A stretch of DNA of 48,834 bases from Pseudogymnoascus verrucosus (taxonomy: Eukaryota). The stretch lies in assembly GCA_001662655.1 (NCBI GenBank), contig KV460214.1; one strand, written 5' to 3'. A program made the translations under genes and the position numbers. Below are positions 2,275 through 42,273 of this stretch, one piece after another; the stretch's first letter is position 1; each line of letters starts with the position of its first letter. The notes below the pieces were generated by a model. That model was not told the DNA's origin, made no database searches, and saw nothing but the letters and a program-made list of their open reading frames with translations.

Positions 2275-2455
2275 AGAGCTGGGGGGGTTGCTTTTGGCTT
2301 TGGAGTTAAGGGAGTTCATGGGGCGTGGATGGAATGGCGCGGGATTTGCATAATTGGCTCGAATATCGGGTGTGTATATGGGCTCTGGGCTGGCTATTTG
2401 CAGTATATCGAAGTATATATACGATTTCCAAAAACGTTTCCTCCTTCGCGAACGG

Positions 2456-16859: not shown

Positions 16860-18949
16860 CTAGCAGACTCCCGAAGGAACAGTCGTGCTCTCCTTCCTGC
16901 CAGTAGATCCGCTCCCCCTCGACGCACCCTCACCCAGTCCACGCTTGGCAAACGCCTTCCAGAGCTCGCAAGCGTTCGAGCCACCAGTGAGCGCCTTATC
17001 AGCATCAATGATGGCATCACGGGCCTGCACGAATGTAGGGCTGCAGGGTTGACTGTTTGATATTAGCATCATGTTTGAGAAATAGAGAAAGGAGGGGGGG
17101 AAGAGGAGGGGACTTACAGAGCCATTCCATCAAGAACCAACTTCATAGTCAAGAACTTTCCATCTGTCGGCACCTTCCCATTAAACGTCGGCTGTCTTGC
17201 CTCGGAGTTGCCATGTTTCTCCACCAAATTCCAAAGCACCTCATAAAGGATAGTCGCCCACACCGTGCCAATAGTATGCACCGCACTCATCGTATTAACA
17301 CTCTTATACGTATACGGGTTCGTCGTCAAGCTCGTTGAGTACAGGTAATTCCTAATCCCCTTCGGATCATTCGCAATCCAATCACCCATCGGGTAATTCT
17401 TGGCCCTCGTATCCGCCTTCTTCAGGTGAATAGCAATAGCCATGAAATCTCCCCATCCCTCGCCCATGCCCCCCGCCTCGAGGACGTTGAGGCAGCCGGT
17501 GTTAGCGGGGCCGCCGGTAAGGCGGTTGGATACGCCGTGGGTGTACTCGTGGATGATGACGCCGGCGTCGAAGCTGCAGTCGCGGTAGGGCGTGCTCTCG
17601 TCCCAGATGTACATGCGCATCACACCCGGCTGTCCATCAGGCGGGGTAGCGAAGTTGGCATTGTTCGTCCCCGAGCCATCCTGGGCGTTGAGGATGACGG
17701 CATCGTTGCCCTTGCCGCCGGCGCCGTTGTTGTTGGTCTCGAAGTTACCAGCGGCCTCGTTGAAGCCGAGCGCGTGGAGCATGTCGTGGTACATGTTCGC
17801 GGTGTAGAAGAGCTGGGTGACGGATGCGTCGATGTACTTCTTCGGGTTGGTCTCGGCGAGGGAGTAGCCGTACTCGAATTTCGCGCCGGGAGCGTCGGGG
17901 CGGTAGTCGTTGGTCCAGCTGTTGTCGCCGTCGTAGTTGGCTTGCGCGATGCCGTTGTTGCCTTCGGTCATGGTGTAGGTGGTCTTTCCGTTGCCTTGCC
18001 AGGTGAATTCCGAGGCGGTCTTGTCGGCGGGGTCGGTCTCGATGGTGCGGCTGCCCTTGCTGGGGTCGTTGGTTCCCCATGGGCTGTGGGATGTTAGAAT
18101 AATAAATCATCTAGTAGGAAGCGTTTATACATACAAGACTTGGTAGGTAGCGTCGGAAACGTAGTTCACAACACCGTAAACCTCGCTAGCTCCTGAGGCA
18201 TCAACGTAGGAAAGCAGCCAGTTGTCCTTGAGATCAGTCTCCACTCTCCACGACAAAGACAGCGACCCGTCCTCCTTCTGGAAGTACACGAGACGAGCCT
18301 TGGGGTCCTGCTGAGCGCCAGTGGTTCCCTCAATGATGTAGTGCTCAAGCGCCTCCTCGGCCTTGGCCTGAGCGCCATCGGCGCTGATCTCGAGACCGAG
18401 GACGTTGGAGGCACCCTTCAGAGCGGCAACGGCGTCAACCTGACCGCGCGCGACCAGGGGGTTCTCAGATGGAACGTCGCCAGAGAAGAACGAGTTTCCG
18501 TAGGAGAAGACGCTTCCGTCAGCGGCGACCTGCGAGAGAAACTGTCAGATTATATCACTCTAAAACGGGGATTCATGGGGACGTACGTTAACGTTGAAAT
18601 CAGCATTGTCGATATCAAGACCGTGAGCCACCTGCTTGAAGTTGACATGAGCAACGCCATTGCTCCCAACATAATGGTCATCCACCACGCGAAACTCCGC
18701 GCCCGGCGCAACCTGCTTAACGAGGGCCTGCGCCGTCTCGAGATAAGTCCCCCTCTTGGTCAGAGAAGACACAATGCTCGACTTAGCGGTGAACCCCGCA
18801 TTGCTGTAATCAGCCTTGGTGCCCAGACGGAACGCATCAAAGTTGACCGCGCGACCATTGATGTCCCTGCGCGACGACACGAGCGCGGGGTGCGCAAGCG
18901 CCGTGCACGGGAGCAGCGCGACGAGCGCGGCGGCGGTGGTCAAACGCAT
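16860..18949 (-). CDS. Secreted fungalysin (M36) metalloprotease; exons 18949-18587, 18529-18135, 18083-17118, 17052-16860
   Basis: Signal peptide [13 protein letters not shown], propeptide ([19 protein letters not shown]), [15 protein letters not shown], zinc motif [26 protein letters not shown]. Three GT-AG introns restore the frame. Confidence 0.95.
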
Positions 18950-21075
18950 GGTGGTGTGAGGGGAGAAGTGAAGGATGGAAGAGAAGTAGTAGAATAGTCT
19001 GAACTTATCGAGCAAGAGCTTCCGAACCTACCTCTCAGGCGCAGCGACGGCGTCTTTATATACATCAATCCCATCCATGGTGGAGACAGCTCGAATCCGT
19101 GATCACCATCACGGCCCTGTGGCCGCCGTGCTAAATGCACCTCACAGCACCTCATGACAAGCTTCCCCCCAACGCACTCCCTTCCCAGCTTCCCGATTCG
19201 AGTAACTGCCCCATCGAGATAGACAGAACAGAGGCTCGTTGGCAGAGCTACTGCAGGCCCAATAAATGAAGTAGCATCCCCCGACCCGACCTACCTGCCT
19301 TCACCTCGCGGCGCTAAACCCGCACCGCACGCCGAGCTTTCCAACGAAGCGGCCGATCCCCCATCCTTCCCAGCAGCCGCCCAGCCACCAACCCTTCCTT
19401 CGAGAAGGCTGCCGAGCCACCAGCGCATCCTTCGATCGGGATAATCGTGTGGGAATCCCGAGGCCGGGGGCTGTGTCTCATCTAATCTTCCATCCCATTC
19501 GCCCTGAGACCGCGTCGTGAACACACGCACAGCTACCCTGCCCTCATCGTCGCCGCGTACGTACCTCAGCTGCTCCCCCGCCGGACCACACGCGACCCTG
19601 AGCTCCCCTCTCCTCACTCACACCAATAATAAACACACCCCTCGACCCCCATCTGATTCGCCTCCAACCCCCTCACAATACGACCGTTCGCACGTAGTAG
19701 CCTCACCTGCCAAGTCCCGACTACCGGACCCCATGCGCAGATTGGGAAGGTCAGTATGGGTGGCCACCGCAGCGGAGCTCGGCATGTGAGAACACCGGCA
19801 TGCGCGCGTCCAAGTTCATCGCGCCATCTGCCGCCAAGGCGCCGCACGGGGAAGCATTCGAGTCGGGGTGATATACTAAGCTCGTTAGCAGAGCCGTGAT
19901 ATAGTGCTGTGTGATAAGAAGCGTGCGTCTGTAGGGGTTGAAGCGTCGCCGCTAAGGTGTGGAGGGGGTAGGTGGCATGTGAGGGGTGCGTCGCTAAGAC
20001 ACGGTTTAGGAAGTTGGGGCGCAGGCACCGTCTGCTGAGTGGCTATGGGGGTCATGGCGTGCCTGACCGGATGGAGAAGCTCTGATGGGAAACGGTGGGC
20101 TAGCTGGGGGGGATGGGGGGTTTAGGCTTAATTTGATGGGAGGATGGCCCGATTAATAAGGTGTGTAAAATGTGTTGACTTATCTTTGGGGGTTTGGGGG
20201 ATTGCGTATTGTGTATTGTTTTGTTCGGGGTGATCGCCGTTGAGAGCAACTTCCCCATACAAATATGCCACAGTTGTAGGTGGCGGGTGGCTGTAGTGGC
20301 GGAGGCGCTGGGGCGGGGAGGGGCATCCACTATCTTGCCGGTGGGATAAGCATAACCCTTTTAAACAACAACTATTGACAACCCTTTTGTACGAAGGCAT
20401 TTCAAAGATACCGCTATTCTCTATAATCTGCCAGTTTTAGAATCGTAAATATATCCCTATCCTATCGCACTCAGTTACTCTAATCAGATGGTTGTTTAAA
20501 GTATGCGCTAGACTACGAGGATCTATACGGATTTACATGTCGCTTCACCCATAAACATAAACATCGCACCTATCGGAAGATCATACCCAAAGTAGTGTTG
20601 CAGTATCTTAAAGATGATAAACGTCTTTATTTGCTTTTTCTACGGCAAGGAGGGGGGGGGGGTGGTGTATTGGCACTCACTCCTTCCTTATTAAGTAACG
20701 TAACACTACTATAACACTACTATCTATACGTATACGTATACGACAAAAAGCACCTCGCCTTCCTTCCACCTTCTATCTATCCGTGCCATCGCTATCACAA
20801 CCAGGCTCAACTTCCAATGCAACATCTACACCTATAGCACCTACCACCCACTACTAAAAGTAAGCCTTACAAACCATTACATAGCGCCTCTACAACCTCG
20901 CCCCATGCGGCTCCTCTAACGTCTCCTCCTTCCTCCAAGCAACAGAGTAACAGTAACAACTTATACTTACCACCACCTCTACCAACCATCTCTCTCTCCC
21001 CCTACCGCCCTCAGCCCATCCCCTTCCTACACAGCAGCACAACAGTACATATACCCTACCAACAGAGAAGCTATC

Positions 21076-21136
21076 ACATACGACCATAGACTCAAGAGAA
21101 TTGGGCATCCCGTCCGCTCTGCCATACACAAGCTTG
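21076..21136 (+). pseudogene. 5S rRNA gene truncated or interrupted after nt 61
   Basis: 61/61 identical to nt 1-61 of the intact copy at 26201, then an abrupt switch to non-5S sequence; upstream TATA-like element retained. Confidence 0.93.
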
Positions 21137-21339
21137 CGTATCCTCTGGTTAATAGTCTCAATCGTGCCAATAGGCATAGCACGGATTCAGGGCCACTTAC
21201 CTTGGAGGTTCCTCCCTTATCTTTTTTTGGATCTTTCGTAATAGACCTATAGGATAGCACCGAAACCCTTCAGACTCGCACTCCCATATGCTACCATTCT
21301 GACCCGGTGCCCTGTGTCCTTACAATGGCCCTCCACCCA

Positions 21340-21410
21340 ATGATCCACCACTGAATTATCCACCACCTAATTATCCTCCACCTAATTATCCCTTACTCAA
21401 TGATCCCTAA
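21340..21410 (+). repeat. Degenerate ~15-bp tandem repeat (AATTATCCACCACCT-like, 4-5 units)
   Basis: aatgatccaccactg aattatccaccacct aattatcctccacct aattatcccttactc aatgatccc; reads as P-N-Y/D-P-P repeats, possibly a coding relic. Confidence 0.7.
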
Positions 21411-21527
21411 TACTTTTATCATTATTAGCAAATTACGCACCATGAGCTAAAGTTGGCAACTACAACCACAATTTGAGCCACAGTCTGAATTGCAACATGA
21501 GAACAACAGTAGTTTGTATTATTCATC

Positions 21528-21850
21528 TTATAACATATGCTCCCCATCCTCATTCTTTGCCTTCTTGCTCACATGGTTTAAAGCCTCGCCCTTCGTGTCT
21601 TGTATCTTTTCCTCATCATCTTCTCTCTTTCGTTTCCTAGCAACATAGTTTGAACGTAGTTCCTTAATACAATGCACGCCTTCAAAATGAGCTCTGAAAT
21701 CTGAAGGAGGCTTAAGATGCACGTTGCACATAGGGTGCTAACATTCTAATTCTGCATAAGTAGTAAGGTGTGTGTCAATATAATTAAGTAGCGTGGTTTC
21801 TTCATCCATTGCTACATTCTTTGTGATAGAGAAAGGCTCTTATCGCCCAA
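21528..21850 (-). pseudogene. Mutated C-terminal fragment of a C2H2-type zinc-finger protein resembling DUF3435 (Starship captain) tails
   Basis: Reconstructed with one frameshift and two TAG stops: LGDKSLSLSQRM*QWMKK(A)TLLNYIDTHL..LEC*HPMCNVHLKPPSDFRAHFEGVHCIKE..RKRKRE. Family assignment is from remembered motif similarity only. Confidence 0.5.
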
Positions 21851-21938
21851 GGGTGAAATCAGCCACAAGGTTAGATTGATATTTTGCAGGATAATAGGTG
21901 GATGTATGTCGCTGGTTTGGTCTATTTAGATTAATTAC

Positions 21939-22151
21939 CTACTCATCATACCCTAAACTGAGTGTCGTCGGGATCAGTGACTCTTTAGCGTTCCTATCCA
22001 AATACTTCCTCATCTTAACACCCGCAAACTCATGCTCAACGACTGTAAAATGACCCTGTTGTCCATTCGCCCTCGTGATATTCTTCAATTTGAACACCTC
22101 CTTCAGCATCGCAGCGAGCGCGCTCCCGACCAATCTCGCACCGAAGCAGAA
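21939..22151 (-). pseudogene. C-terminal fragment of a Ppo / linoleate diol synthase-type (dioxygenase-P450 fusion) gene
   Basis: FCFGARLVGSALAAMLKEVFKLKNITRANGQQGHF..YLDRNAKESLIPTTLSLGYDE*: heme-Cys segment and characteristic tail. No upstream gene body is present. Confidence 0.65.
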
Positions 22152-22920
22152 GAGTTCAGCTGGTGACGGTAGTTACGTCGTGCTTGACCCTGCTGAGCTG
22201 GTAGCTGGGTAGCTAGATATGGCTGACGGACCTTGCGGGGGCGGCGAGCAATCTGACTGGCTGAACTCGTCGAATTGTCAAGCGGAGTGGATTGGGGATT
22301 AGGTGGTCTGTGCTTCCCGGCCGAGGTAAATTGGTTATCTGGCAAAGTTTCTTTACACCATCTTCCTTTCATCATTAAAGATGAACAACGCAAAAGGCTA
22401 TTATCAATTCCCGACTAAGTTAAGCAATTTTTTTCATTTTTCATGATAGCTAGTGAAGCTGCTAAGGCATTGTTCTCTCGGGCTACTATTACCTTTTTTT
22501 CTCCTCGAGTTTCGTGCTTCAATTCAGAGTTGGAAAAGTCGTCGTCATGCTCCCCCTTCCCACGTCCCACGTCACTAACGTGTGCGGGGCGGTTATTTGC
22601 TGTTTAGTATTTTCGCTATAAAACATACCAACCCGACTAATTGTCGGATCTTTTGAAAGCTTACTCGGGTTATATATAGATTAGGCTTCCGTTACAGGGA
22701 CACGAAAGTCACGTGTGAAGGATGGGTATCCCTGAAACGGCCTAATGCGTGAACATGGCCTACTCCTCCAACACACCATTTCGACGACAAACAGACAGAA
22801 TATATAGGCAACAGCATACCGAACGCTTTCATTTGCTCATAATCCACTTGGTGTTGTTTACTCAGTCTTGCTCTGGAGGAGGTCGCAGCGGTTAGCTCGA
22901 GGAGCTCCTGCTCATCAAAA

Positions 22921-23771
22921 ATGTCGCAGAAATACGACACCCTCCCAATGGCACTTAAATACGACATCGGTCCCCGACAATTCCTCTTCAGACAGCCGTC
23001 CTCATTCTCATCCGCGACGTCAAACATCCCCCTCACCAAACCACCATCCTACATCCCAATGGCGCCCACCACCGAAGAACCCGCAGCCACCGCCGCGACA
23101 ACCACCACCTCCCTCCACCGCCTCCCCTCCGCACCCCGCCACTCCACCGACTCCGACACCGACTCCATCATCTCCACCAACGCCCGCCTCATCTACCCCA
23201 CCTCTCACCACATCGCCCAAAAAGATTACACCAGCACCATCTACCCCACCTCCTTCTTCCGCCTCCTCGCCGCCATCTTCCTCATCGTTGCTCTCTCCCT
23301 CTTCGCCGCCAGCGGCGCAGGCCGCGCCGTCCCTGCCATCGTCTTCGTCTCCCTCGCCCTCCTTCGCATCCTCTTCGTCTTCTTCTTCCACACCCCGCGC
23401 AGAGCCCGCTGGCTCGGCTGGAGAGGCGTCAACCTCGCTGTTGATTTCTCGCTCTTTGCTGGTATCTTCGGGGCTGTGGGGGGCGCATTCAGCAACCAGC
23501 GAAATGTTGCGGCGTGCGTCCTTGGCTGGGTTGGCGTGTGAGTTTTCCCCCTCCCTCTCCTTTCTAGCAGCTGGAGTATAGACTTGTGCTAATGGGGGTT
23601 TTTAGTTCTATCTTTGCCTTAGCGGCGGTTGATACGGGGCGTCCGACTAGGATCGCTTTTACATGGACACTGAGTCTGGATTTCTGGACGGGGAGCGGCG
23701 CGCTGTCGCTTGATGATAACTGGGTTGAGGCTAGGAGGCCAGAGATGGGTGGGAGGGCGTCACCTGTCTAG
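22921..23771 (+). CDS. Hypothetical multi-pass membrane protein; intron 23538-23605; start may be 23059
   Basis: About 4 hydrophobic segments; GTGAGT..CTAAT..TAG intron joins two ORFs in frame; codon style like core genes. Confidence 0.75.
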
Positions 23772-24592
23772 AGATGGTGGGGGCCGGGTGAATGGTGAGG
23801 TAAGGGGGTGCAGGTATGGGCGTTGGTGTCTATAACAGTAAGTTTTTTTTTTTTCTTTCTTTCTTTCACTTGCACGTTTGGAGAGCGGAGGGGACGGCGC
23901 ATATAATGATCTAGATATTATGTCAAACTAGTCGGAGGGCAGCTTAGGCTGTCTGATGGCGAAAATACTCTGAAATAGTAATGGCTGTCCCCTTGAGGAC
24001 GCTGGTGTTGGTCCGTTTGTTGTGTTGCTGCAAGTAGCATTGCTAGATGATGGTGACTGACTTTTATAGTGCTTTATATACGATACGGTGCTTGGTTCGA
24101 GTGGGTTTGAGGAGTTAGGAGTTTGCGGGTTTGGTGGGATACTTTGGATATTTAGAGCTTTTATGAATGGTATATTTTCCAGACATTTATACTTTTCCCG
24201 CAGGTAAAAGTGAGACATTAGATGCATAGGTTTTACTATGTAATTGCCTGATCCTATCTGATTCACCAGGCCAGAATCACAATCTGTTGCCCTTTGCCCA
24301 AGTGATCTTGAACTGTTCTTGGTTTACCCCACCGAATGTGTCTAATGCCGAATCTAGAATAGTGTGCTTATAACTAATTGCGGAAATGTTCGTGGAGCCA
24401 CGCCTTACTTCCCCATCGGCGAACACGACTGTTCCGACGGCTCATCTCCCGAAATGAACTATATCCCTGTTTCTAAAGTTACGAATTATTCATTCGCGCC
24501 CCACTTCCCGTCAAGGCCAACACCATCGATTAAGTATATGTAACTGACAGGACCCCAGTTTGTTCCGAAAATCCTTATTCCATCCAATAAAA

Positions 24593-25603
24593 ATGTTGCA
24601 GCCGATTTTCGCAAGGGCTTTGACTAGGCAACTATTGGGGAATTCGAGGTACTTACGCCCCATCCGAATCACTTCATCTCCTAGGATATTCTGTCGCACT
24701 TCCTTGAGGCGGTCTTTAGATTTCAACATGAACTCCTCAAGTACCAGATCCTACAGTGCCACCGAGCTGGATGTGGTGGATTTTCGCATTAGGAAAGACG
24801 GGCCAAGCACATTGCAGAACCCACACTACACATATGCCTTCCGCTATTGGGGATTCGTAATCATTCGAACTACATACACGCCAGAGTCTGATCTCCAATG
24901 GCCCGTCGCCATGGCGAAATTATCCGACTGGCTACTGTTGGAGATGAAGGAAAAATACAATACTTCAACTACAGATCAAGACCGCGTCATTGAGAAATTT
25001 AGGAACCTGATTGCGGATGACAAAGCACTGTATGATGGGATGCCAATGAACGATGCGATTCTGCACTTCGATGATATCCTTAATGAGCAGTATAATGTTA
25101 CGTTGAAGTACAGTTCGCCAGAGCATTTCGAGAAAACAAGGGATTTTCGGATTCCCGAGCTTGTCGAGCAATCTCTCGTCGAGTCTGACCCCGAGGTCAA
25201 AAAAGATCTCCTCGAAGCATCGTATTGGTGGCTCAACAGTCACATATGTCTTGTAATGGACGAGGAGTCGCTAGATGATCTCGTGGAGCTCCCTGTGGAG
25301 ATCCCTGGTTTCGATTTGACTTCGATGCTGCAAGAATTCAGGGAGGACCCTCACGGTCCTCCACCTGTTCCGCGGACGGCATATCTCAAAGTTGCCATGC
25401 AACATTCAGATTTCGATTTGATGGATCGCAAGCAGTATCATAGTGCCGAGGATCCGGACTGGTACGCTCAGTGGGCTAAATGGGCAGTTCATAATGGCTT
25501 GGGACAGATGCATCGGTCTTATGAAACTTGCGAGCTAGATGCGGGCATGAGATTGGAGCGACTATACGGGCAGCCATATGTCGAAATTTACGGGCAGGAC
25601 TAA
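24593..25603 (+). CDS. Hypothetical protein with a WGFVIIRTTY..SD..W motif; start may be 24728
   Basis: Uninterrupted ~1 kb ORF; the motif resembles an uncharacterised fungal family. Confidence 0.7.
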   Translation: MLQPIFARALTRQLLGNSRYLRPIRITSSPRIFCRTSLRRSLDFNMNSSSTRSYSATELDVVDFRIRKDGPSTLQNPHYTYAFRYWGFVIIRTTYTPESDLQWPVAMAKLSDWLLLEMKEKYNTSTTDQDRVIEKFRNLIADDKALYDGMPMNDAILHFDDILNEQYNVTLKYSSPEHFEKTRDFRIPELVEQSLVESDPEVKKDLLEASYWWLNSHICLVMDEESLDDLVELPVEIPGFDLTSMLQEFREDPHGPPPVPRTAYLKVAMQHSDFDLMDRKQYHSAEDPDWYAQWAKWAVHNGLGQMHRSYETCELDAGMRLERLYGQPYVEIYGQD

Positions 25604-26200
25604 TATCTATTTGCTTCTTGTACGTGTTGGGATGCTTTGGGACAGATCAAACGAGTTACACATGACGTTCTTAGTGTAAGTTAAGAGGTTTTCGCAGCCT
25701 GAGTTGTTTACATAGTTCGATATTATCAAAACTAGCCATTGATCTTAATTTCAGGTTATCTAAAAAAAAGTCCTAACTCTGCTCCTTGCTCGAGAAGGCC
25801 TAAATTATATAAAATCCGCCTCTAGGTTTTATTTCCTGATCCTGGAAATCGGATTCCTAAATTTATCCGTGGGGAATTGATTCTGTCAGCGTGATGCCGC
25901 ATGTTATCCAAATGTTCCAAAGTGGTATACGCCAGTGCCCGCTGACCTTCATCAGCAGTACTTGTACTGACATCGGTCCATAGCGCCACGATATGTCCAC
26001 AGCCAACAATCACTATAATCACTAACATGGCCAAAAAGTACAGTTCTATCAACTATAACATCATCTACACCCATGGCACCTAACACTAATCACACAACCC
26101 ATCACCCGTAGCTCCCCCCCTTTCCCCAAACCATTCCCCACTTGCCGCCCGACGCCATAGCACAGCAGTATATATATTCCCCCGTAAGAGAGGAATAAAT

Positions 26201-26319
26201 ACATACGACCATAGACTCAAGAGAATTGGGCATCCCGTCCGCTCTGCCATACACAAGCTTGAGATCGGTGGATTAGTAGTTGGGTGGGTGACCACCAGCG
26301 AATACCCACTGTTGTATGT
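26201..26319 (+). rRNA. Intact dispersed 5S rRNA gene
   Basis: ACATACGACCATAG..CATCCCGTCCGCTCTGCCATACACAAGC..GATTAGTAGTTGGGTGGGTGACCACCAGCGAATACCCACTGTTGTATGT, about 119 nt with pairing termini, an upstream TATA-like box and an oligo-T terminator. Confidence 0.97.
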
Positions 26320-26685
26320 TTTTACTATTTTTTTTGGCCCTTTTGGGCTAGATAAGAGAGTGTGTGTATAGATATAACGTAAATATGATAATATTGCTAG
26401 TAAGTACTCTAACGCTTTTAGTTAAACAATGTGTAATGTATTAGATCTATAATATAGTAATGAGTTAATGTTTGCCTATAAAGATTGATTATATATAACC
26501 ACATTTCTGTTTTAAATGACCTTTTTATTTTGAAGACATAGTTCATTGACATTTTAATCCTTAATAAGAACATAAATCCATTACTATGCCTACTTATTAA
26601 ACAACTAAGTCTGATTCAGCTCGAATCCAATCATCCTAGGTAAGTGGCACTGCTTTTAGATATTGGGACTATGCAATGACAGTTG

Positions 26686-26880
26686 TTAGGCCAAGGGTAG
26701 TAGAGACATGTCATCGAGCAGCTTCGCCTCCTGCGTGCAATCTGCCGCCAACTGGTCAAGGAATGTGGCTTCCAGCAGTGATGGTAGCTCTAATTAGAGC
26801 TCTGTCCCCAACAGCTCATCAAGGAACACAGATGTTGCATCTAGCTAGGAATGGTCTAGAAGTGGCAAGGAAGACAGTCG
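26686..26880 (-). pseudogene. Possible mutated coding remnant next to an AT-rich tract
   Basis: Frame LSSLPLLDHS*LDATSVFLDELLGTEL*LELPSLLEATFLDQLAADCTQEAKLLDDMSLLPLA* has internal TAG/TAA stops compatible with CAG/CAA transitions; no family recognised. Confidence 0.3.
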
Positions 26881-27394
26881 TAGCTGATGGTCCATTAAAT
26901 CAAAGAATCGAAGACTGTGGGCGTCGTGAGTAGATCAGTTCTGTTACGAAGCTCCTGTCGAAATGCCCACCTAACTCATGGGAACATCCATTAGGAGGTT
27001 GAGTTGCAGGCTGTTCTGTTCGCTTAGTGTAAACCATTCACTAAATTGTGGACATTTGTGGTCGTGTGTGGTCATTGAGAATGCGGGGAAAGAATGCGGG
27101 GAAAGGCTAATGTTAGGATTTAGGATGATGATGAACCCATTCCGTTACTCCACCTGCCAAGTCCGTCCATTGGACGGATATATATTTCCGAAAGGGTAAA
27201 ACCGCCCAACTTTGAGATGAGACGTAACAGAGACCTTGACGCACTGCGTTGGAGAAATAAAATAGCTTGGATAGGCTACCATGACATCTCCACTCAGAAT
27301 ACTCGGATGTATTTACTATTGTAACACTAATAAGGGTTCAGAAACAAAAATAAAAAAGTAGCAAACGACACAGGCCACAGGAATTACAAAAACG

Positions 27395-28471
27395 ATGGCG
27401 ATTTCATTGCTCAAGGGTACAGCCTTTGTGACAGGCGCAGCTTCTGGTGATTAACGCGTCCCTAATTCCCACCATGATCCATCCTTCCTCTACTCCAATA
27501 TCACTCCAACATCGTAACGGCCAAGGAGCCTGAAATCCTCCCAAGAAAAGAGCAACCCCTCAATCCATGTCTAAAGCTCATTCTCCATCCTCGCAGGAAT
27601 TGGCAAAGCAACCGCCTTTGCCTTTGCCCGGTACGGCGTCCAGCGCCTCGCCATCTCCGACCGCTCCGCTCCCGCCCTCAGGGCCACCGCTCTCGAGTTG
27701 CAAGCGCAGTTCCCCTCGGTCGAAATCAAGCCGCTCATCGTCGACGTGACCAACGATGACGAGATTGATCGCGGGGTCGCTGACGCCGTCGCGGCATTCG
27801 GCCGCATCGACATCGCCGTCAATAATGCCGGGGTCAGCGGCGCGGGCAAGGAGACCCACGAGGCGACTTCCAGCGACTGGCAGAACGTGGTGGACGTCAA
27901 TTTGAGCGGAGTGTGGAAGACCCAGAGGAGGATTCTGCAGCAAATGTTGACACAGGAGAGCCTGGGCATGAGAGAGGGCAGAGGCACGATTATCAACGTC
28001 GCATCGATGTATGGACTAGTTGGCCCGCCGGGATATATCGCGGCCACTGCGTATACGGCCTCGAAGCACGGTGTTCTGGGTCTTACGAAAGCTGTAAGTC
28101 GTAAAAGTGAGCATGATTGAAGCCTGAAATCTGAGTTCTGACTCGTGGTGGTACCTTAGGATGCAATCACCTACGCGCCCGAGGGGATCCGTATCAATGC
28201 CATCTGTCCGGGGTAAGTGCACCTTATATACATCTCTAACTGATCTCTCGCAGAGATAATGACTAACACAGCCTCCAGATATGTCGATACGCCGCTTCTC
28301 CGCGCTGACAGCCAAACCGACTACATGAAGAAGGAATTGTTGAAGGTGCCAATAGGACGACTGTCGTCACAAGAAGAGACGGCAGACGCGATTGCCTTCC
28401 TAGCCTCACCAATGGCTAGTTACATAGTCGGAGCGGCCTTGGTGGCAGATGGGGGGTATTCTATTCAGTAA
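27395..28471 (+). CDS. Classical SDR oxidoreductase; exons 27395-27446, 27597-28093, 28160-28212, 28279-28471
   Basis: TGAASG|IG, GRIDIAVNNAG, IINVAS, YTASK, GIRINAICPG, DGGY; three GT-AG introns. Confidence 0.93.
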
Positions 28472-28844
28472 TATATAAGAAAATATCTGAAAAATAAACA
28501 TAGAATACGTAAACCAGATTACATGTTTGTTAACTCTATTATTTCAAGTTATATAGTAAACTGCATCACTCCTCTAGTATTACAATATAAAGCAAACTTA
28601 GGTGGACTGGAACACATATAATTTGTATGTAAAAGTACAACCAACTACCCGCGTTACCTAGGACCCCGCGTTACACAGTGACTTAATGTTAGCGTGGGGC
28701 GAGTTCAGGAACGCCCAAAGATGGCGGAAAACTTCAACCGGCGATAAGACTAATAAGACGGAATGCTTATCACATATCAATACTAGATGCCCACGAAATA
28801 AAATGATGGACTCGAACAAAGCATATAGTTTGGCAGAAGAAGAA

Positions 28845-30642
28845 ATGGCTGCTCAACTACCAGACTTGAGCCAGTATGGCCGCTATCAGCTCCTGGCCAT
28901 CGCTGCGCCTTTATTGGTACGTCGCCGATGAACTTTCGTGAGAATGAAAAAGTACTTATATTCTAGATTGTGCTCTACTATATCGGCTTGGTTATCTACC
29001 GCATCTCTATCCATCCTCTGGCAAAGTACCCTGGCCCCACGCTATGGGCTATCAGTTCGATCCCCGGCATCCGCAGTCTGCTCAATGGAAGAATCAGCTT
29101 CGACTACAAGGAATTGCATGACAAGTATGGTCTGTAGTTTACCGTTCCTCCCGTTTCCAATACATCGAAAGCTAACAATAGCCAGGTCCCGTTGTCCGGG
29201 TCTCTCCAGAAGAACTCTCATTCAACACCGTCGAAGCCTGGGAAGACATCTATGGGCACCGAATTGGGAAGCATGCCGGACGCCCCAACATGGATAAGGA
29301 TCCCATTCACGTCGGTTCTGTAGAACCCATTCCTGGCGCTTCTTCTCTTACTATGGCCAATGACATAGATCACGCTCGTCTCCGCCGTGCTCTTGCATAT
29401 GCTTTCTCTCAGAAGGCATTGGTTGAGCAGGAGGAGTTGCTACAGGATTATGTGACGAAGTACATCGATAACATCCGCAAGTTTTCTGAGGCTGGTGAGG
29501 AGTTCAACGCTGTAGATTGGTTCAATTATACGACTTTTGATATCATTGGTGATTTGTCTTTCGGCGAGGTACTTCGCTGCGCCTCCCCATTCATACCAGG
29601 AATTCACTAACGCACCGTCAGCCCTTCGGCTGTCTCGATAACAAGCACGGCTCCCGCGACTGGGTCGTCATGATCTACGAATCCATCAAAGCAGGAGTCC
29701 TCGAGCAAGCCACCCGCCGCTTTGCCGACGTGGGGACCTGGGCCCAGCAGTTCCTCATGTGGCTCATCCCTTCCAAAGCGCGATGGATCCGCCGCGAGCA
29801 CTTGCGGAACTCGAAGGAGAAGGCACTCCGCAGGATGAATGACGATAGCGAGCATAAGGACTTTTTATGGTATATCATGAAACAGCGCGAGAAGAAATCT
29901 GAGGTGTCGGATAACGAGGTGATAATCAATGCTGCCTTGTTCATGTAAGTCTCCCACCGCCGTGCTCTACATTCTAACGCGAATGACTGATTCATCAAAC
30001 AGTATTGCCGGCTCTGAAACAACCGCAACCCTCCTCGCTGGCCTAACCAACCTACTCCTCCGCAACCCTGAAAAGCTCGCCCGTGTTACTGCTGAGATCC
30101 GCTCCCGATTTGCTACCGAGGCTGATCTGACCTTTGACAACATCATGTCCCTTCCCTACTTGAATGCCTGCTTCGAAGAGAGCCTGCGCATCTTCCCACC
30201 AGTGCCCGTCGGCTTGTTGAGAAGAGTTCCAAAGGGTGGTGACATGATCGACGGCAGCTTTGTCCCAGGCGGAACGAGTGTTTCCGTGCCTGCGTGGGCT
30301 GCCAGCCATAGCCCGGCCAACTTCAAGGATCCAGACGTTTTCTTGCCAGAGAGATGGATGGAGGAACATCAGAGCGAGTATGGCACTGATGTAAAGAAGT
30401 CGTCACAGCCCTTCTCGCTTGGGCCGAGAGGCTGTATTGGCCGCCACTTGTCGTATGTGGAAATGCGTCTAATACTTGGTCGACTGTTGTGGAATTTTGA
30501 TCTTGCGTGGAGTGATAGTGCTGCTGGGAAGGAGTCACACAGGAGATGGGATCATGATGGTGAGTGCAAGCATCTGAGAGCCTTCAATACGTGGGAGAAG
30601 CCGCCGCTGGTGATCAAGGCATCTGCGGCAAAGAAAGGATGA
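28845..30642 (+). CDS. Cytochrome P450 (Tri11/CYP65-like appearance); five exons, introns about 28917-28966, 29130-29185, 29569-29621, 29945-30002
   Basis: HPLAKYPGP, KYGPVVR, FDIIGDLSFGEPFG, AGSETT, EESLR, PERW, PFSLGPRGCIG. Subfamily is an impression; start could be 28803. Confidence 0.93.
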
Positions 30643-31278
30643 AGAAGGCCTGGTAGTGGAGAAGTGAGCATCAGCTAGAAGGATTATGTGATGGACAGAA
30701 TTCACAGTCCCAAATCTCAAGACAGATACAATTATTCGGTGGGCATATTGCCCGCGATGTGTTAGCCATAGCCCGAGAAATTGAAATGAGTCTACAGATT
30801 TTATCTATTTTCTTGGTTGACAGTGATCTCCGAATCCTTGGATTTTTAGAAGTACGATGTATCTGTTCAAGACCACCCGCCAATGCTGACCATTCACCAA
30901 CGGACTAGACCATTGGTGAATGGCCTAGGCTAGCCACCAATACGAACATTTGCCAGTCGACTAGACCGTTCGCCAATGAGTGCTCTCATTGGCGACTGGC
31001 CTGGGCAGCCCGCCACCACTCGTCAATTCCTACATCGGCGGGTGTTCTTGGCAACGCCTACGGAGCAGACATGAAAAAGGCGAGTAAGAGCAGATATTTA
31101 TGTAGGTAATATAGTAACGTTATTGAAAAGAACAAGATATTATATTAGTACCGTTATCCTATTCATATTGGCAGGAACATATTGGCTGGTGGTCGGGAAC
31201 ATATCGTATTCTGGATCTAAATCTATCACGGGAATTGCCATGCTTTTATATCATTTATATTGCAATGTCTGCATCTCT

Positions 31279-32500
31279 TTAAGGAATTATCTTGGCCTTC
31301 TTCATCCTGTCAAATACGCCACCCCATGTTTGCAGTGTGCTCCTCTCTTCTTTAAACCCTGTCTCGTACATCTTCTTCATGTCATACTGTCTATCGAAGT
31401 CGAACTGCGTGAGGAGGAAATACTCAAACCCTTTGAATGTTAGTTCAGAGTCCGCAATCCCAGTTCTTAGACCATGTTTTTTCTCCAAATTCTGCCATGC
31501 ATTGAAATGTTTCTTGATGTACGTCCTCACTTCCGTCGGTTCTCCTTCGCTAGGTGGCCCGACCCCCTTCAATCCGAAATATGAGCAAATTTCCGGCCAC
31601 TTTGTCTCCCAGGACTTTGGTTCCTTTGCATCCGCGACATTGAATCCTTCTCCCTTTGAACTCTTTGAGAGTGCGAGAGAAAGATGAATTGTCTGTCTTG
31701 CAATCATGTCACTTGAACTGTCAATTGATTTCGCAACCCAAGCTTTGTGACTCCCTGGGTACGGACAAGCCGAGCCTTTCCCTTCAACTTCAGCCCAGAG
31801 TGACAGAAACACAGCTATTGAGGTTGCAAGCGAGTAGAAGTTTTGATTCGGGACAAATCCAATGATGATATCCGGTCTCGTGTCGCACCAATTCCACGAT
31901 TTGTCTTTGGAGTAAGAAGTGATCCACTCAAGTTGCGGGTGGTAGAAGAGGGTCTCGTAGTATGGAGACTTGAGACGTGGATGCGATTCTCTCAAGGGAA
32001 CGTGAATGTAATCCGTAGGGTGGTTTTCCAGAAGGTGACAGCCGTACATTTTTGCACCTGTTTGGAGCACTACAAATTCCAGTGCTGAGCTGAGATGGTC
32101 CATGGCGGTAGTGGAGCGCTTAAACATCTCGACTGCATCTTTATATTCCTGCAAGAGATCCGATGAGGCCTTATATGCTGAATTTATGTCAGTGAGTGAC
32201 GTCTCCTCCCAAAAAGGGAAACGAACCCAAATAGTACACATGTGTCACCTTCTCAATACCCTCGATCTTTTGAAATGCACCCTCAAGATCTTCCTGGCTC
32301 CCCTTTAACAAATCGATCCCCGAGACGATGGTCAGCCTCTCATCGTTTGGCCACAAAGAATCGCTCTGGTTGAGTGGCCGATTCGTCAAAGCATAGACTT
32401 TGTCCCAGATTTCCTCCTTCGGATAGTCATTCAGAATCTCGTTTACAAACGCCCATCCCGTCACGCCACTGGCGCCAAATATGAGCGCCGACTTGGACAT
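31279..32500 (-). CDS. NAD(P)-dependent Rossmann reductase, PRISE (progesterone 5-beta-reductase/iridoid synthase)-like or SirQ-like; intron 32226-32178
   Basis: ALIFGASGVTGW, VTHVYYLAY, LQTGAKMYG, FYHPQ, TRPDIIIGF and a KAKIIP terminus. Confidence 0.85.
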
Positions 32501-32963
32501 TTCGGATTTCTTCAAGATTTATATCCGGAGATAACTTCGAGCGATACACTACTGCACTTCTGCTATTTAATGCGAATACGTACGAGTTTTTGCTACCAAG
32601 TATTGAAGTATTACTATTTCCCTTACTGCAAGATCACACGGCAAGGGCATTTCGGAAATCCTAGATTCAAAAATCTCGGAAATCCAGTAGCAGCAACTTG
32701 ATTAACTACAGTACACGGAAAACGATATGCTGAGGTCCACCCTAAAAGGAACGAGCCGAGGTGGAGAGTACTCGTACATGGCGGGGTAGGGAATCCCCCA
32801 AGCCCACTAGCGTTGAACGTTAGCCTAATCCTTAACGCCGCAATCTCCATTCTCAATTGTAATTGTGATTTAGAAAAGCCCTTTATTTCTTTTTCTTTTT
32901 CAAAATTCAATCACAAACGAAAAGAGATCAGCCCCTCCCAAGCTGTCAACCATATCGTCAAAC

Positions 32964-33710
32964 ATGGCACAGCCCGGAATTCTGTGGGTGAACTCTAAAA
33001 TCACCCACCCCGATGCAATCACTCCAGAAAACTTCGACAAATGGTACAATGACATCCACGTCCCCGATATCCTCGCAACCAGTGGCTTCGACTCTGCATT
33101 TCGATACAAAAACATCGATCCAAAGGCAGATCGACCATACCTAGCCATGTACCCAGTCAGCGACGTTGATTGGCTTGGGTCTCCGGAATTCTCGAGCATA
33201 CCTAATACGAGCGATTGTTTCCCGGGACCAAGTCACAAGTGTTTTGATTACGCAGATTTTGATACAAGATTTTATGAGTTTATTCATTCATACGAGAAGC
33301 CTGGCGCGCCTGCTTGTAGGTGGTGGTCCTCTCCGTCGATGCATCAAGTGGGGGTTGACAAGTGAAAAACAGGTCCAACTAAATTGGTGATCTCAGCCGG
33401 ACTCACTCCAGCAGCAGGGACAGATGCAGATTTTGATGCATGGTATAGAGAGGAACATTATAGTACTTTGGCTGCGTGTTCGGGGTATATGAGAACGAGA
33501 AGGTACAAATTGAAAAGGGCTGTGAAGGCAGAGAACCCAACGACGTATCTGTCGCTGCATGAGTTTGAGTGTGATGTGCTACCGCAGGCAGACTTAGATA
33601 AAACTGCAGAGACACCTTGGTCTAAGAAAATTATGGGATCGCTACTCGGTGCTGAGATTGGTGTTTATGCGTTAAGTGGAGCATGGGGCGAAGTTGGGGG
33701 AAAGATTTGA
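32964..33710 (+). CDS. EthD-like tandem dimeric alpha-beta barrel protein; intron 33316-33372
   Basis: Two repeats, FDKWYNDIHVPDIL..FRY..YLAMY and FDAWYREEH..RTRRY..YLSLHEF. Confidence 0.8.
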
Positions 33711-34206
33711 AGGGAATGGCAAACGTGGTTATTAAATTGTCCTACAATAATGTGCCTGACATCTATTGTGTGTAAAATCCCAACTGTTATCTCTTGTAGA
33801 AGTGGCTGTCACTTCCAATATTGTTTTGCTAGGAGAGTAGCCCCAACGCGTGCCCGGCGTAACTATTGCTTTATGCGGCTCAAAATCTCGATAGTCAATT
33901 TCCATCATCTCGGATATCTTTTGCCGACCGCATCGCCCCGCATCCCCCGCATCCCATAAGCGAAATCAACCCCACACGCGGGAATAACTAACTGGGGTAA
34001 ACAAATTCTGGGGTCGAAACCTGGAGAGTCCGGGACTAGCCTAGGGAATGCTCAAAAATAGGAACCGAAAGTGGCTTTTCGCGCATGCTATATAATGTCC
34101 TCGACCAAGCGAGTTTGAATGATCCAGTTGATTTTCTTCAACTTCGTCGTCCTATTCTTGATCTTTTTGAGCCTGAAAGAAAACGAAATCACTAGACAGG
34201 AAAGAA

Positions 34207-36157
34207 ATGACAGACATTAATAACAGTGACGAGAAGGATGAGTTTGTCCTTGAACATCTAGAGGCAGTGAAGCCGGATGCTAATGTGGCTTTTCATCATG
34301 GCCAAATTGCTCCTGAAGCAATCGGAGGACTTTATAACGAGATGCCAAAGGGCTATTACTGGAGCAAAGATTTCTTAGGAACATTAATCGTGAGTAATAA
34401 ATCTCGGGTTCTTGAAAATGCCTCTGATTGATAATTATAGGCGACATGTCTTGCCCAGATCAGCGGATACCTCGGCTGGGTCCTACCAGCTAACACTCTC
34501 AGTCTCATCAATGAGTCTCTTGGAGGATCTCCAAATATAAATTGGGTTGCACTTGCGTGGACTCTCGGTTTCACAGTGGGACTCTCCCTTGTTGGGAGAT
34601 TGAGTGACAGTCTGCCTTCCAAAACCCATGCGACTTGCACCTCTACTGACAAATAATCCAGTATTCGGACGCCGCTGGTTTTTCATCGGTTCTTCACTGA
34701 TGGCACTTGTCGGGAACATCATAGGAGCATCAGCCCAATCCGTTAACCAACTCATCGGAACAAATTGTCTCAACGGTCTGGCTGCAGCCGGCCAACTTTC
34801 CTTCAATGTCGTAATTGGCGAACTCGTACCAAACAAGCTTCGTGGACCCTTTAACGCATTGGTATTGTCGACGTCCATCCCGTTCGCGGTCTTCGGTCCT
34901 CCCGTAGCAAGAGCCTTCTATGAAAATACCGGCCTACAGTGGCGGTGGTCATACATTCTGGGATGCATCATCAATACCATCGCTATTGCAACATACTACG
35001 TCTGCTATTTCCCTCCGTCGTATCGTCAGCTGCATGTCAACGGAAAGACGATGATGAAACAGCTTAAGGGCCTTGATTGGATTGGGATCTTCCTCTTCAC
35101 TGCCGGATTGGTACTTTTCCTGATCGGACTCAACTGGTAAGTCAAACTTTATCCGCGACAATTCTATCCACTGACAAGTCGAAGGGGAGGACAAACATAC
35201 CCCTGGAGCTCCGCCCACGTCCTCAGCACCCTCATCATCGGAATCGCCACCCTCATCGCCTTCGGATTCTATGAAGTTTACAGCGGCCACGAATACCCAC
35301 TGATCCCAATGCACCTCTTCAACAACATAAAGTACGATGCCATCGTCGCATGTGCTTCTATAGCTGCTATGGTCTACTATTCCATGACCGTGGTCTGGCC
35401 TACTTTGGTCGGCGCACTCTTCACCACCAGCGTCCAAGATATCGGATGGCTGTCATGCGCAGTAGGCGGAGGCCTACTGTTGGGTCAAATAGCTGCTGGT
35501 TTGGGAATTCGGTATATCCCAAGGATGAAGCTCCAGATGACTGTCGCGGCAGTGGTTATGGTGACATTCGTTGCTGCACTTGCTTCTGTGGACGAGTACT
35601 CCCGCACTAGGACTGTTGTCTTCCTTATTATTGGGACTGCAGCTGCTGGATACATCGAGAACCTGACACTGTCGTCAATGGCGCTTGTTTGGGAGCCAGA
35701 GGATATCGGATTGGTTGCTGGTGTGTTGGGAAGTATAAGGACGGCTTGCTCATCGGTTGCCACTTCTCTATACCTTAGCATTCTGTCCAATCAGTTTGCA
35801 AAGCACTTACCTCGCTATGTCACCCCTGCCGCGACAGAAGCTGGACTTCCAACCTCGTCCCTCGAAGATTTGTTTGCTGGCATCACAGCGGGATCGTTTA
35901 GTAAAGTGGAAGGAATCACACCAGCTATCGAGGAAGCCGTTGGCCATGCGGTCAAGCGTGCATATTCGATGTCTTTTAGGACAGTATTTCTGTGCACTTT
36001 GCCGTTTGGGGCGATTATTTTGGTGGCTGCGATTATAAGCCCGAATGTTGAGGATTACTTGACAGATGATGTCGCAAGAAGATTGCAGGGGAAGGCTGTT
36101 GCTGCTGTCCCTAACAGCCAAGTAATGACTGAGAAGGATACTAATCCTGCAGAGTAA
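34207..36157 (+). CDS. MFS transporter of the TRI12 (trichothecene efflux pump)-like family; introns 34390-34440, 34610-34661, 35137-35184
   Basis: GRLSDIFGRRWFF, GELVPNKLRG, QWRWSY, YFPPSY, LDWIG, GGQTYPW; many TM segments. Confidence 0.9.
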
Positions 36158-36236
36158 ATGTCGGGTTCATCTGGACGATGGGCAAATGAGCTGGACTGAT
36201 GCGAAATAGGATAGTTTCACCTTCTTTTATATAGTA

Positions 36237-36680
36237 ACGTAAGTCATGGCCTGCTTGGGCCAATGGCGTACTTGACCTTGAACCAAAATTACACCAAAAC
36301 ATCGAAAACTCAAAACTGCGTTAACTTCAACAACATTAGCTGTACAGTTTTACGCTCCTATATGCTGTATCTATATAGCTATATAAATAATGCTTTATCA
36401 TGATTTTATTCTAGAGTACTCGATAAAGAAGTTGCAAAAAAAGTATACTAAAAAAAGTATCAGTTTATTTGAACATAGAATAACGTCATAAATAAACGCG
36501 TGAAATACAAATCCTTCTATAGGAAAGTTCATCCATAGTCTATTGAACGCATATACAAAAGGACTAAGTTTATTAAGGCGTGGTTGAGAAGTTATTATAA
36601 TTATAATTTTTTCGGTGTTTTGGTGTAACTTTGGTGCAAGGTGAAGTACGCCATTGGCCCAAGTAGGCCATGACTTACGT
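36237..36680. mobile_element. 444-bp pogo/Fot1-type (Tc1-mariner) MITE with ~72-bp TIRs and a TA target duplication
   Basis: TA|ACGTAAGTCATGGCCTGCTTGGGCCAATGGCGTACTTG..CGAAAA on the left and its near-perfect reverse complement ending ..CCATGACTTACGT|TA on the right; AT-rich non-coding interior. Confidence 0.92.
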
Positions 36681-37084
36681 TAAGCTGTGGAGTTTATTAT
36701 TTGGATGAATTAGATGATAATGTATTAGACGCCTCGCAACTATTCCTGTCTAACTACCTCTGATTGATTACTAAGGTTCATACTATTACGAGTGGAGTAA
36801 GAGCCGGTGACTGGTTTATATTGTGCGTTTCCATAATCTATCCTAGACGATGTTGCCAAGTTTAACCAACAATTTGGCGGAGATATCTTCCGAATATTGT
36901 GTAGTAGATCCGGTCGACTGGGCAATCACCACTGTCGCCAACTGGTTTTTGGCGAAAAATAAGGGGCAAGAAACAGGTTACCAGTTAACATCAAGACGGA
37001 CGAAAACCCGCGCAGGAGTTGATGTTGCTCGAATAAACGAACAGACATGCTCTCACTTAACTATTAGAAGACAAGGCGCTCGCG

Positions 37085-38965: not shown

Positions 38966-39823
38966 CTTGACTTTTTGTCAACCAAACGAACAAACCCACC
39001 ACCTTTTGTACGCAGGATAGAGTTATGATTCTCGCTAGAGGCTCCTTGGTAGAAATGGCCGACGGCTATGCTTCCCAGTTCGCCCTTTTCTCCAGTCTCT
39101 TCGATCTGTCCTATTCCAGCATGGTGTTCCATATGTTAGCCCATCCACCCGAGCTCCCATTGGTTGCATTAGTCATACTTTCTCCGAACCCTAGCCCGCT
39201 CCGAAGCCGATGGGCCGATGCCGATATATGGAACGAAGCTGCTCGGGGTTCGGCGTGGGAAAAGGCAATCGTTGGCTAGCCTGGAAGTGCCACCGCAGTA
39301 GTGGGCTTTCGTTATGGTCCCTTTGTTTCATTCCAACAATTATTAAATCCGCTTTACTGTTCTTATTTTACTGCTCTTCCCGCGCTCACACGTGCATAAT
39401 ACTGTTTGCCTTCATCCTCTACGTCTAACACTCCTGTGGCGAGACCAAACAGTAATAGAAATAATAGCTAGCAACAGAAAAAGCAATGCTAACATAACTT
39501 TTACCCGTCTAATATTACGTCTGATCTTTTCTCACAGGACATTGCTGTAGTAATCCTTACGCTATTCTATAATCTCGGCGAGGTCGAAAGAACTATAGCA
39601 ACAGCTTCGAAGGCCCCGCTCCCAGCCAAGGCGGTTAGGTTATGTGCGTATAGTCCTCCCCAGCACAGTCTTCCCCAGCATCTGTAAGCGCTTTAAGCTT
39701 CAATTATCCGAGATTTGCCGAAAGAGCCGAGAAATATATATCCATTTATTCCCCCGAATTTCATAATTTTACATCGATAAAGATATAACCGTTAATCGCA
39801 GTTGTCCATAATTTTTTTTGCAA

Positions 39824-42108: not shown

Positions 42109-42273
42109 ATGGCTCTCTCAAACCCCTGCGTGCACTTCTTCAAGATCTTAAAGTCTGAGAGTAGCTTAATCCAGTGGATGTGCAATATGTGCCACTCTGG
42201 CCCGCACTGGCTCATCTTCGAATGCAGGTACTGCAAGTTCAAGACTTGTCGCGTCTGCACCGACCACTGCTAG
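42109..42273 (+). CDS. 54-aa Cys/His-rich putative zinc-binding microprotein (below the ORF-track cutoff)
   Basis: MALSNPCVHFFKILKSESSLIQWMCNMCHSGPHWLIFECRYCKFKTCRVCTDHC*: three CxxC pairs. A probable 5'-UTR intron (about 41990-42093, GTATTT..CTGAC..CAG) precedes it. Confidence 0.72.
   Translation: MALSNPCVHFFKILKSESSLIQWMCNMCHSGPHWLIFECRYCKFKTCRVCTDHC

Follow-up and report, generated by a model that had tools for sequence, protein, structure and literature searches.

A stretch of 48,834 nucleotides (nt) of contig KV460214.1 from Pseudogymnoascus verrucosus (assembly GCA_001662655.1; hereafter the window) holds a 5S ribosomal RNA (rRNA) gene that ends after its nt 61 and is followed by unrelated DNA. 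What has broken this gene, and how much of the DNA behind the break was brought in by whatever broke it? We propose that an element entered a working 5S gene site-specifically and that the 61-nt half is probably its left junction; the element would belong to a family that targets 5S nt 54-61, (C)AAGCTTG, and most likely consists of Starships carrying a DUF3435 recombinase. An earlier reading of the same DNA, made from the letters without database searches (the sequence-only reading), had likewise proposed site-specific entry of a Starship-type element into 5S, followed by collapse through deletion. The first part of that proposal is borne out by the multi-copy junction, its recurrence in a metagenome contig, the complementary right junctions and the DUF3435-protein fragment described below; the second part has fared less well.

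Rfam identifies one full 5S gene in the window. It lies 5125 nt downstream of the split copy in the same orientation, its target site is unoccupied, and it served as the reference for comparison. The half copy is identical to it at all 61 aligned positions (21076-21136 against 26201-26261), which end in ...ACACAAGCTTG; immediately after AAGCTTG the split gene breaks and the two sequences diverge. The window contains two copies of the first 23 nt of 5S, starting at 21076 and at 26201, whereas none would be expected from 100 shuffles. A second 3' half was found in the window neither with a 23-nt 3'-half motif allowing up to 3 mismatches, which retrieved the intact gene only, nor with a sensitive blastn search using the whole 5S, which gave no further 3' part. 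Rfam at E≤1 on 20500-27000 likewise reported only the intact gene, because the half copy is too short to be detected. Being derived from 5S, limited to nt 1-61 and without an intact coding region, the half copy belongs with the truncated 5S pseudogenes.

Sequences upstream of the two copies suggest what the split one used to be. A TATA-like motif stands about 30 nt upstream of each (TACATATA at 21046-21053 for the split gene, TATATATA for the intact one), close to the roughly 27 nt seen in the consensus of other 5S copies from the aligned contigs described below. Both copies are also preceded by GCACA(A/G)CAGTA and by a 28-nt motif of 86% identity (20820-20847 and 26059-26086). Because these motifs are common to the two upstream regions, which are otherwise not copies of each other, the split gene was apparently once a normal 5S at a location of its own. 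With its promoter motifs kept and the whole 3' half (nt 62-119) lost, it should now be dead. The identity of the 61 nt and their sharp end, the retained upstream boxes and the missing 3' half had all been noticed from the letters, and each stands.

To see how often the junction occurs, four public contig runs (X1, X19, X3 and X4) were aligned to window positions 18500-28500. X1 matches the window without a mismatch and may be its source, so that it is not independent, and X19, X3 and X4 are relatives about 2-3% apart. Positions without contig cover (26516-28500 in X1; 25180-26181 in X19 and X4) were not used as evidence. Summed contig depth is not a copy number, and depth at 21139-21148 was excluded from any such reading because contigs of intact 5S genes can align up to about 21156. 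Behind the break, at 21241, depth exceeded the single-copy level by far in all four runs: X1 had 6283.8 (single copy about 165), X19 569.7 (about 16), X3 1714 (about 32) and X4 569.3 (about 36). Further on it falls off, being roughly ten times single copy at 21548, five times at 21710 and twice at 21954, with a low-copy stretch (about twice single copy at 21497) between the terminal block and the recombinase fragment discussed below. We take these values to mean no more than that the first 100-160 nt are present in tens of copies and the later parts in fewer.

The block behind the break also recurs next to 5S genes cut at the same base. In eight contigs of X4, 5S nt 61 is followed by a diverged form of the block, in which by eye roughly 20 of 30 letters agree. 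When metagenome contigs were scanned with 5S nt 41-61, six loci were obtained, in five of which the 5S continues past nt 61 (three of them, L004-L006, represent one context). In the sixth, L003, the 5S is cut after G61 and followed by the same block as in the window, with an identical core, CTCAATCGTGCCAATAGGCATAGC, and an overall match of 83% between window 21068-21201 and L003 23-156. The 5S half of L003 differs slightly from that of the window. Its upstream flank differs as well, as separate insertions into different 5S genes would predict. Within 4 kb of the L003 junction, neither a 5S 3' part nor a second element end was found. As to the window locus itself, X19, X3 and X4 hold both flanks of the split gene at about 97-98% identity, and record 14 of X3 reaches across the junction, to the left of which it includes 20 nt of 5S; among the four aligned runs there is no contig that bridges the junction with at least 31 nt on both sides.

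If the block is one end of an inserted element, the other end should adjoin the missing part of 5S, and junctions of this kind are present in the contigs. In five contigs of X1 and seven of X3, 5S 3' parts start at nt 57, and in two further contigs of X3 at nt 54, in all cases preceded by non-5S letters. The reverse complement of the right-end consensus from X1 matches the window block in 23 of 29 columns, a score that none of 2000 shuffles reached, and the reverse complement of X3_26254 matches the block of L003 with a score reached by 3 of 2000. The other four reverse-complement comparisons were equalled by 9 to 62 of 2000 shuffles, and the six controls in direct orientation by 480 to 1785. 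Moreover, the reverse complements align to the left block in register with the element end. These alignments give the family imperfect terminal inverted repeats (TIRs) of about 30 nt; they are seen at the family level, no right end having been found for the window copy. Since left junctions end at nt 61 (window and L003) and right junctions start at nt 57 or 54, either GCTTG or CAAGCTTG is present on both sides at the family level and may represent the direct repeat or crossover region. A recurrent cut, inverted ends and a short direct repeat together form the signature of a site-specific mobile element. The sequence-only reading had suggested searching for the junction next to other broken 5S genes and for orphan 3' halves, and both turned up: the junction recurs behind a 5S cut at G61, and the 3' parts that start at nt 57 or 54 are preceded by the reverse complement of the block. 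It had also named a single-copy junction, never linked to 5S or DUF3435 genes, and random truncation points as findings that would speak against it; none of these is what we see. Within the window, a 19-nt inverted match between 21188-21206 and 26634-26652 did not extend in alignment and was treated as chance.

Some likeness to 5S persists past the break. The first 20 nt of the block (21137-21156) agree with 5S nt 62-80 at 12 of 20 positions, so that the blastn match to 5S reaches 21156, and the GTGGATT of 5S nt 68-74 is also found in L003 at a nearly equal distance from the break. This resemblance is compatible with similar recombinase-binding arms on element and target, or with chance.

A fragment of a candidate for the type of enzyme responsible is located 400-700 nt inside the block. 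The tyrosine recombinases known as Starship captains have DUF3435 as their domain. A 69-residue open reading frame (ORF) tail in this region has 27 relatives at E≤0.001, all of them short, in a library of 1.84 billion proteins. One relative of 197 residues (P0122) matches a single longer protein, P0140, at 72% identity; P0140 has 1047 residues, with DUF3435 at residues 157-543 (E 5.6e-41). In a tblastn search, P0140 residues 682-778 aligned, in two frames, with window 21850-21561 (60% identity, E 8.8e-27). What the fragment represents is the C2H2-like zinc-finger region, which in the protein follows the catalytic domain on the C-terminal side. An in-frame TAG at 21738-21740 and a frameshift near 21794 interrupt the fragment. 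Its contig depth is about 5-10 times single copy.

A number of results weigh against this interpretation of the locus. Starships are characterized by a DUF3435 (PF11917) gene at the 5' end that reads inwards, by target site duplications (TSDs) and often by TIRs (Gluck-Thaler et al. 2022, PMC9156397). In the window, the captain gene is represented by the broken fragment outside the catalytic domain; neither DUF3435, nor any other catalytic part, nor another piece of P0140 was found there. The link to the recombinase runs through the C-terminal region of one full-length protein, whose gene model could be a fusion. In addition, the fragment points to the nearest element end, opposite to the captain rule, and no DUF3435 was found within 4 kb of the L003 junction. 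None of the companion genes of Starships (DUF3723, ferric reductase, patatin-like, NLR) was found among 93 Pfam-scanned ORFs, out of 101 of at least 75 residues overlapping 21137-48834, a scan in which short exons could be missed. The apparent copy number of the block, in the tens, is high for Starships. The evidence for right junctions consists of 30-nt consensus text from contig ends rather than full sequences. Self-comparison of 21137-22400 with the window on both strands gave no second copy, and local alignment of the end blocks of the window and L003 with the whole window in both orientations gave nothing above shuffled scores; the window accordingly shows no right end. Complete 5S genes with a T-run in X19 and X3 are also followed, at a distance of 16-25 nt, by the block starting at roughly its 9th-15th base (window 21145-21151), an arrangement that the simple model of insertion at nt 54-61 leaves unexplained. 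Finally, an intact 5S had been predicted for the syntenic locus of relatives, and no empty site was seen there in X19, X3 or X4, which instead hold both flanks of the split state.

Because its orientation is the opposite of that prescribed by the Starship rule, the fragment does not represent a simple captain-at-boundary arrangement. Its placement would fit an element whose captain end lay next to the 5S 3' part and which later suffered an internal deletion; a second, nested element would fit equally well. The former arrangement agrees with L003, since there the side of the 5S 5' half carries cargo and no captain. As no catalytic domain is left in the window, the recombinase family cannot be placed, whether in the Enterprise clade or elsewhere.

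We infer that a recombinase of the DUF3435 family moved the element. By analogy with Starships and bacterial integrases, it would recognize the conserved 5S box around AAGC and cross over there. One end of the element would then adjoin the 5S 5' part with the short repeat, and the other the repeat with the 5S 3' part, the element itself being bounded by imperfect inverted repeats of about 30 nt. The copy in the window is old and degraded, with a tandem repeat, a captain-type piece misplaced for a live element and an orphan tail of a psi-producing oxygenase (Ppo) gene behind the end block. The features of the locus are collected in Table 1.

Table 1. Positions of the split 5S gene, the sequences behind its break and the intact reference gene in the window
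Feature	Positions	Strand	Basis
Upstream region of split 5S with promoter-like motifs	20820-21075	+	Motif sharing with intact copy
5' half of 5S rRNA gene, nt 1-61	21076-21136	+	Alignment, blastn
GCTTG, 5S nt 57-61, candidate direct repeat / crossover region	21132-21136	+	Left versus right junction positions
Putative terminal block of inserted element, left arm of terminal inverted repeat	21137-21201	+	Conserved core CTCAATCGTGCCAATAGGCATAGC
Run of seven T	21222-21228	+	Read from sequence
Second motif common to L003, TTCGTAATAG, after variable spacer	21235-21244	+	Alignment
Subterminal tandem repeat, 15-nt unit CCACCCAATTATCCA, 3.9 copies	21333-21406	+	Repeat detection
Broken DUF3435-type (Starship-captain-type) tyrosine-recombinase fragment	21531-21857	-	tblastn of P0140
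Orphan C-terminal fragment, psi-producing oxygenase / linoleate diol synthase	21942-22151	-	Sequence matches
Intact 5S rRNA gene	26201-26320	+	Rfam, 74.2 bits, model positions 1-120
Compositionally distinct DNA right of break, may be inserted region	21137-48834	.	GC, GC3, Pfam

The sequence-only reading had described the 1.2 kb behind the break as debris composed of a tandem repeat, a zinc-finger gene tail and a Ppo gene tail, and all three were found, the zinc-finger tail being the DUF3435-type fragment. The aligned contigs contain a further genomic copy of 21330-21676 that is 44 nt shorter (joint 21406->21451). The Ppo tail corresponds to the last 70 residues (992-1061) of psi-producing oxygenase A (P0003; E 2e-30); it has 112 relatives, the best at 83% identity, to Leotiomycete proteins, and is present in about two copies by contig depth. 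The debris was also thought to bear changes typical of repeat-induced point mutation (RIP). The usual cut-offs for RIP are 0.89 for TpA/ApT and 1.03 for (CpA+TpG)/(ApC+GpT), a high first and a low second index indicating RIP. At 0.85 and 1.28, respectively, 21137-22400 shows no such bias and falls on the non-RIP side for both, although the fragment does carry the stop codon and the frameshift. Borderline RIP-type indices (TpA/ApT 1.12, composite 1.00) were obtained for one stretch of the region only, the very AT-rich 26321-26640 (GC 0.278) directly 3' of the intact 5S. Pfam gave no match for the small debris ORFs or for the ORFs at 22.6-25.6 kb. Among the latter, an ORF of 351 residues (24548-25603) has 11 relatives, and all six of those with a source name are Pseudogymnoascus hypothetical proteins. 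Diverged second copies of 22651-23103 and 24656-25228 (about 80-85% identity) lie on other long contigs of the same genomes.

How far the inserted DNA extends is best approached through composition. GC content is 0.555 to the left of the split gene (1-21075) and 0.474 to the right (21137-48834), the change coinciding with the 5S break. The GC content at third codon positions (GC3) is at least 0.663 in all eight ORFs on the left and at most 0.643 in 12 of 13 on the right, the exception being a short-chain dehydrogenase/reductase (SDR) at 27575-28120 with 0.72. The left side includes an M36 protease gene at 17.1-19.0 kb. The shift persists for 27.7 kb, to the end of the window, and no right boundary was found. 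According to Pfam, the right side encodes accessory-type genes, namely SDR, P450, PRISE, a TRI12-type transporter of the MFS family, S15 hydrolase, enoyl-CoA hydratase, alpha/beta hydrolase and Zn2Cys6 proteins, as well as a hAT remnant. If a large element is involved, its far end would consist of the inverted end block followed by GCTTGAGATCGG... On balance we lean slightly towards inserted or foreign DNA that continues past 22400, possibly beyond the window, over a collapsed remnant of about 1.2 kb.

Two observations concern the gene content of this side. The genes at 27478-46797, from SDR through Zn2Cys6, form a run of accessory metabolism that looks like a small biosynthetic or catabolic cluster. 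The hAT-type transposase remnant (47455-48795, minus strand, GC3 0.40) is spread over two adjoining ORFs and is recognized by weak Pfam matches to the hAT-like RNase-H fold and DUF659.

Collapse of the element by deletion to the 1.2 kb of debris at 21137-22400, with ordinary host DNA to the right, strikes us as doubtful. The captain-type piece truncated on both sides and the orphan Ppo tail do point to deletions and rearrangements, the scan of 93 of 101 ORFs gave no Starship companion genes right of the break, and the locus is common to all four aligned assemblies. On the other hand, nothing marks 22400 as a boundary, the shift in GC and GC3 continues from the break as far as the window reaches, and in L003 the end block directly precedes cargo-like genes over 4 kb. 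Collapse would also need the loss of both the right end and the 5S 3' half. The collapse that had been postulated from the letters is thus unproven, with no right end or 3' half in the window and a persisting shift in GC and GC3, and the right boundary that had been guessed at about 22400 finds no support. Two features of L003 itself are worth recording here: tandem repeats of the GGGTGAGC type directly behind the end block (157-264), and, within 960-3307, a methyltransferase-like ORF that is broken off shortly before the ORF of a DDE (Tc1/pogo-like) transposase.

The element might alternatively belong to a 5S-specific family of TIR DNA transposons, resembling miniature inverted-repeat transposable elements (MITEs) and unrelated to Starships, with the DUF3435-type fragment as debris that landed nearby. 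We consider this rather improbable, even though inverted ends of about 30 nt with a 5-8 nt repeat, the high apparent copy number of the terminal block, the low-copy stretch between block and recombinase fragment and the lack of a captain within 4 kb in L003 would all suit such a family. The L003 copy is not a short MITE, because no right end or 5S 3' part follows within 4 kb; the target on the AAGC box is shared with Starships of the Osiris type (see below), the genus has many Starship recombinases, and the break has no other transposase in its vicinity, the hAT remnant being 26 kb away. In our view it is very unlikely that the locus belongs to a family of 5S pseudogenes, all truncated to a 5' half with a conserved flanking block, that spread by duplication and gene conversion under birth-and-death evolution with no targeted insertion. 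Truncated 5S pseudogenes are indeed common in filamentous fungi, making up 18-83% of sequences (Rooney and Ward 2005, quoted in PMC5555474), conserved ones with an associated sequence exist in A. nidulans, to judge by the title of Borsuk 1988, and the 5' half in the window is identical at 61 of 61 positions while the flanks differ. However, the complementary right junctions, with their inverted ends and short direct repeat, would not arise from duplication of one pseudogene, and the upstream flanks of the window and L003 differ. As for an isolated, non-specific rearrangement or deletion whose end fell within 5S by chance, the single junction visible in the window and the mosaic of fragments next to it are what it would leave, but it is contradicted by the recurrence of the same base and the same block, both in an independent contig and across many contigs from four assemblies, and we give it almost no credence.

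Site-specific insertion of a Starship has clear precedents in 5S. Among curated Starship insertion sites, 23% are in 5S rDNA, at no fewer than five distinct internal positions and with direct repeats of 6-16 bp (PMC11162782), and the families reported to target 5S are Enterprise, Arwing and Voyager (PMC9156397, PMC11162782). Closest to the window is Osiris, a member of the Enterprise family in A. fumigatus, which inserts into 5S rDNA and fragments it, with direct repeats given as ttaagccac, aagcc and aagccacacg (Gluck-Thaler et al., mBio 2025; Table S3 of PMC12153272). By motif (AAGC anchor, Rfam alignment), these repeats lie on the AAGC box, nt 53-64 of the window 5S, and correspond by position to ACAAGCTTG, nt 53-61. 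The direct repeat AAGCC of A. nidulans Starship1 (Table S1 of PMC11162782) also fits this box, the one that is cut in the window. Osiris and the window differ in host, a member of the Eurotiomycetes as opposed to a Leotiomycetes-like fungus, and in the core of the site, which in the window is the palindrome AAGCTT, unlike that of Osiris. The recombinase also appears to be oriented oppositely relative to 5S in the two. The TIR of Osiris is gaacgcggtcaataccc, and the window block starts with CGTATCCTCTGG... and has the core CTCAATCGTGCC; by eye, the Osiris TIR and the core agree at about 10 of 13 letters, too few for a claim of similarity.

Voyager of Macrophomina phaseolina cuts 5S 20 bp from its start, with the direct repeat GCCCTGTATTCT (PMC9156397). 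Like the family in the window, it uses a fixed internal site of 5S, and it is a giant element with a DUF3435 captain, TIRs and TSDs that is predicted to kill the invaded copy. In the window, by contrast, the site is nt 54-61, and the copy is degraded, with no intact captain, companion genes or visible right end. A more distant parallel is offered by bacterial elements and phages that integrate into tRNA genes, which also enter site-specifically by means of a tyrosine recombinase, use a conserved multi-copy gene for a small RNA and have a short segment of identity at both junctions. Those elements usually carry a replacement for the gene end and leave the tRNA intact, whereas the 5S of the window is broken, as reported for Starships. 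For 21 Pseudogymnoascus genomes, the starfish survey in Table S8 of PMC11162782 gives 5-33 predicted Starship recombinases each, with an annotated element in only one of the 21.

Truncated 5S genes with conserved companions have an older history. Borsuk et al. 1988 (J Mol Evol 28:125) reportedly described truncated 5S pseudogenes of A. nidulans with a conserved associated sequence, and is not known to have described a mobile element. These pseudogenes are reported to resemble the window in having a 5S 5' half followed by a conserved non-5S block, in several copies, and the GGGTGAGC-type repeats of L003 are reminiscent of the likeness to an 'immunoglobulin switch region' mentioned in that title. 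No paper in the library searched names both 'Starship' and 'Borsuk', and the main texts of PMC11162782 and PMC12153272 cite neither Borsuk nor Bartnik. A more far-reaching scenario, which we regard as unlikely, would combine a high-copy end-block family, with apparently tens of copies per genome in four related fungi, that includes short non-autonomous 'mini-Starships' reduced to their ends and moved in trans by the numerous DUF3435 recombinases of the genus, a considerable part of the 5S genes knocked out at one base, and truncated pseudogenes of A. nidulans that are Starship left junctions.

The locus is a degraded example of known biology, in which the host lineage and the end sequence and repeat of the family are new. 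The use of the AAGC box of 5S in two fungal classes is a new observation, and it is either convergent or conserved. Starships are the main known vehicles for large gene blocks within and between fungal genomes, and 5S is a preferred landing site among others. The target site at 5S nt 54-61, together with the end sequence and the repeat, could serve to delimit elements in Pseudogymnoascus genomes, and insertion at this site is a candidate explanation for the old reports of conserved truncated 5S pseudogenes.

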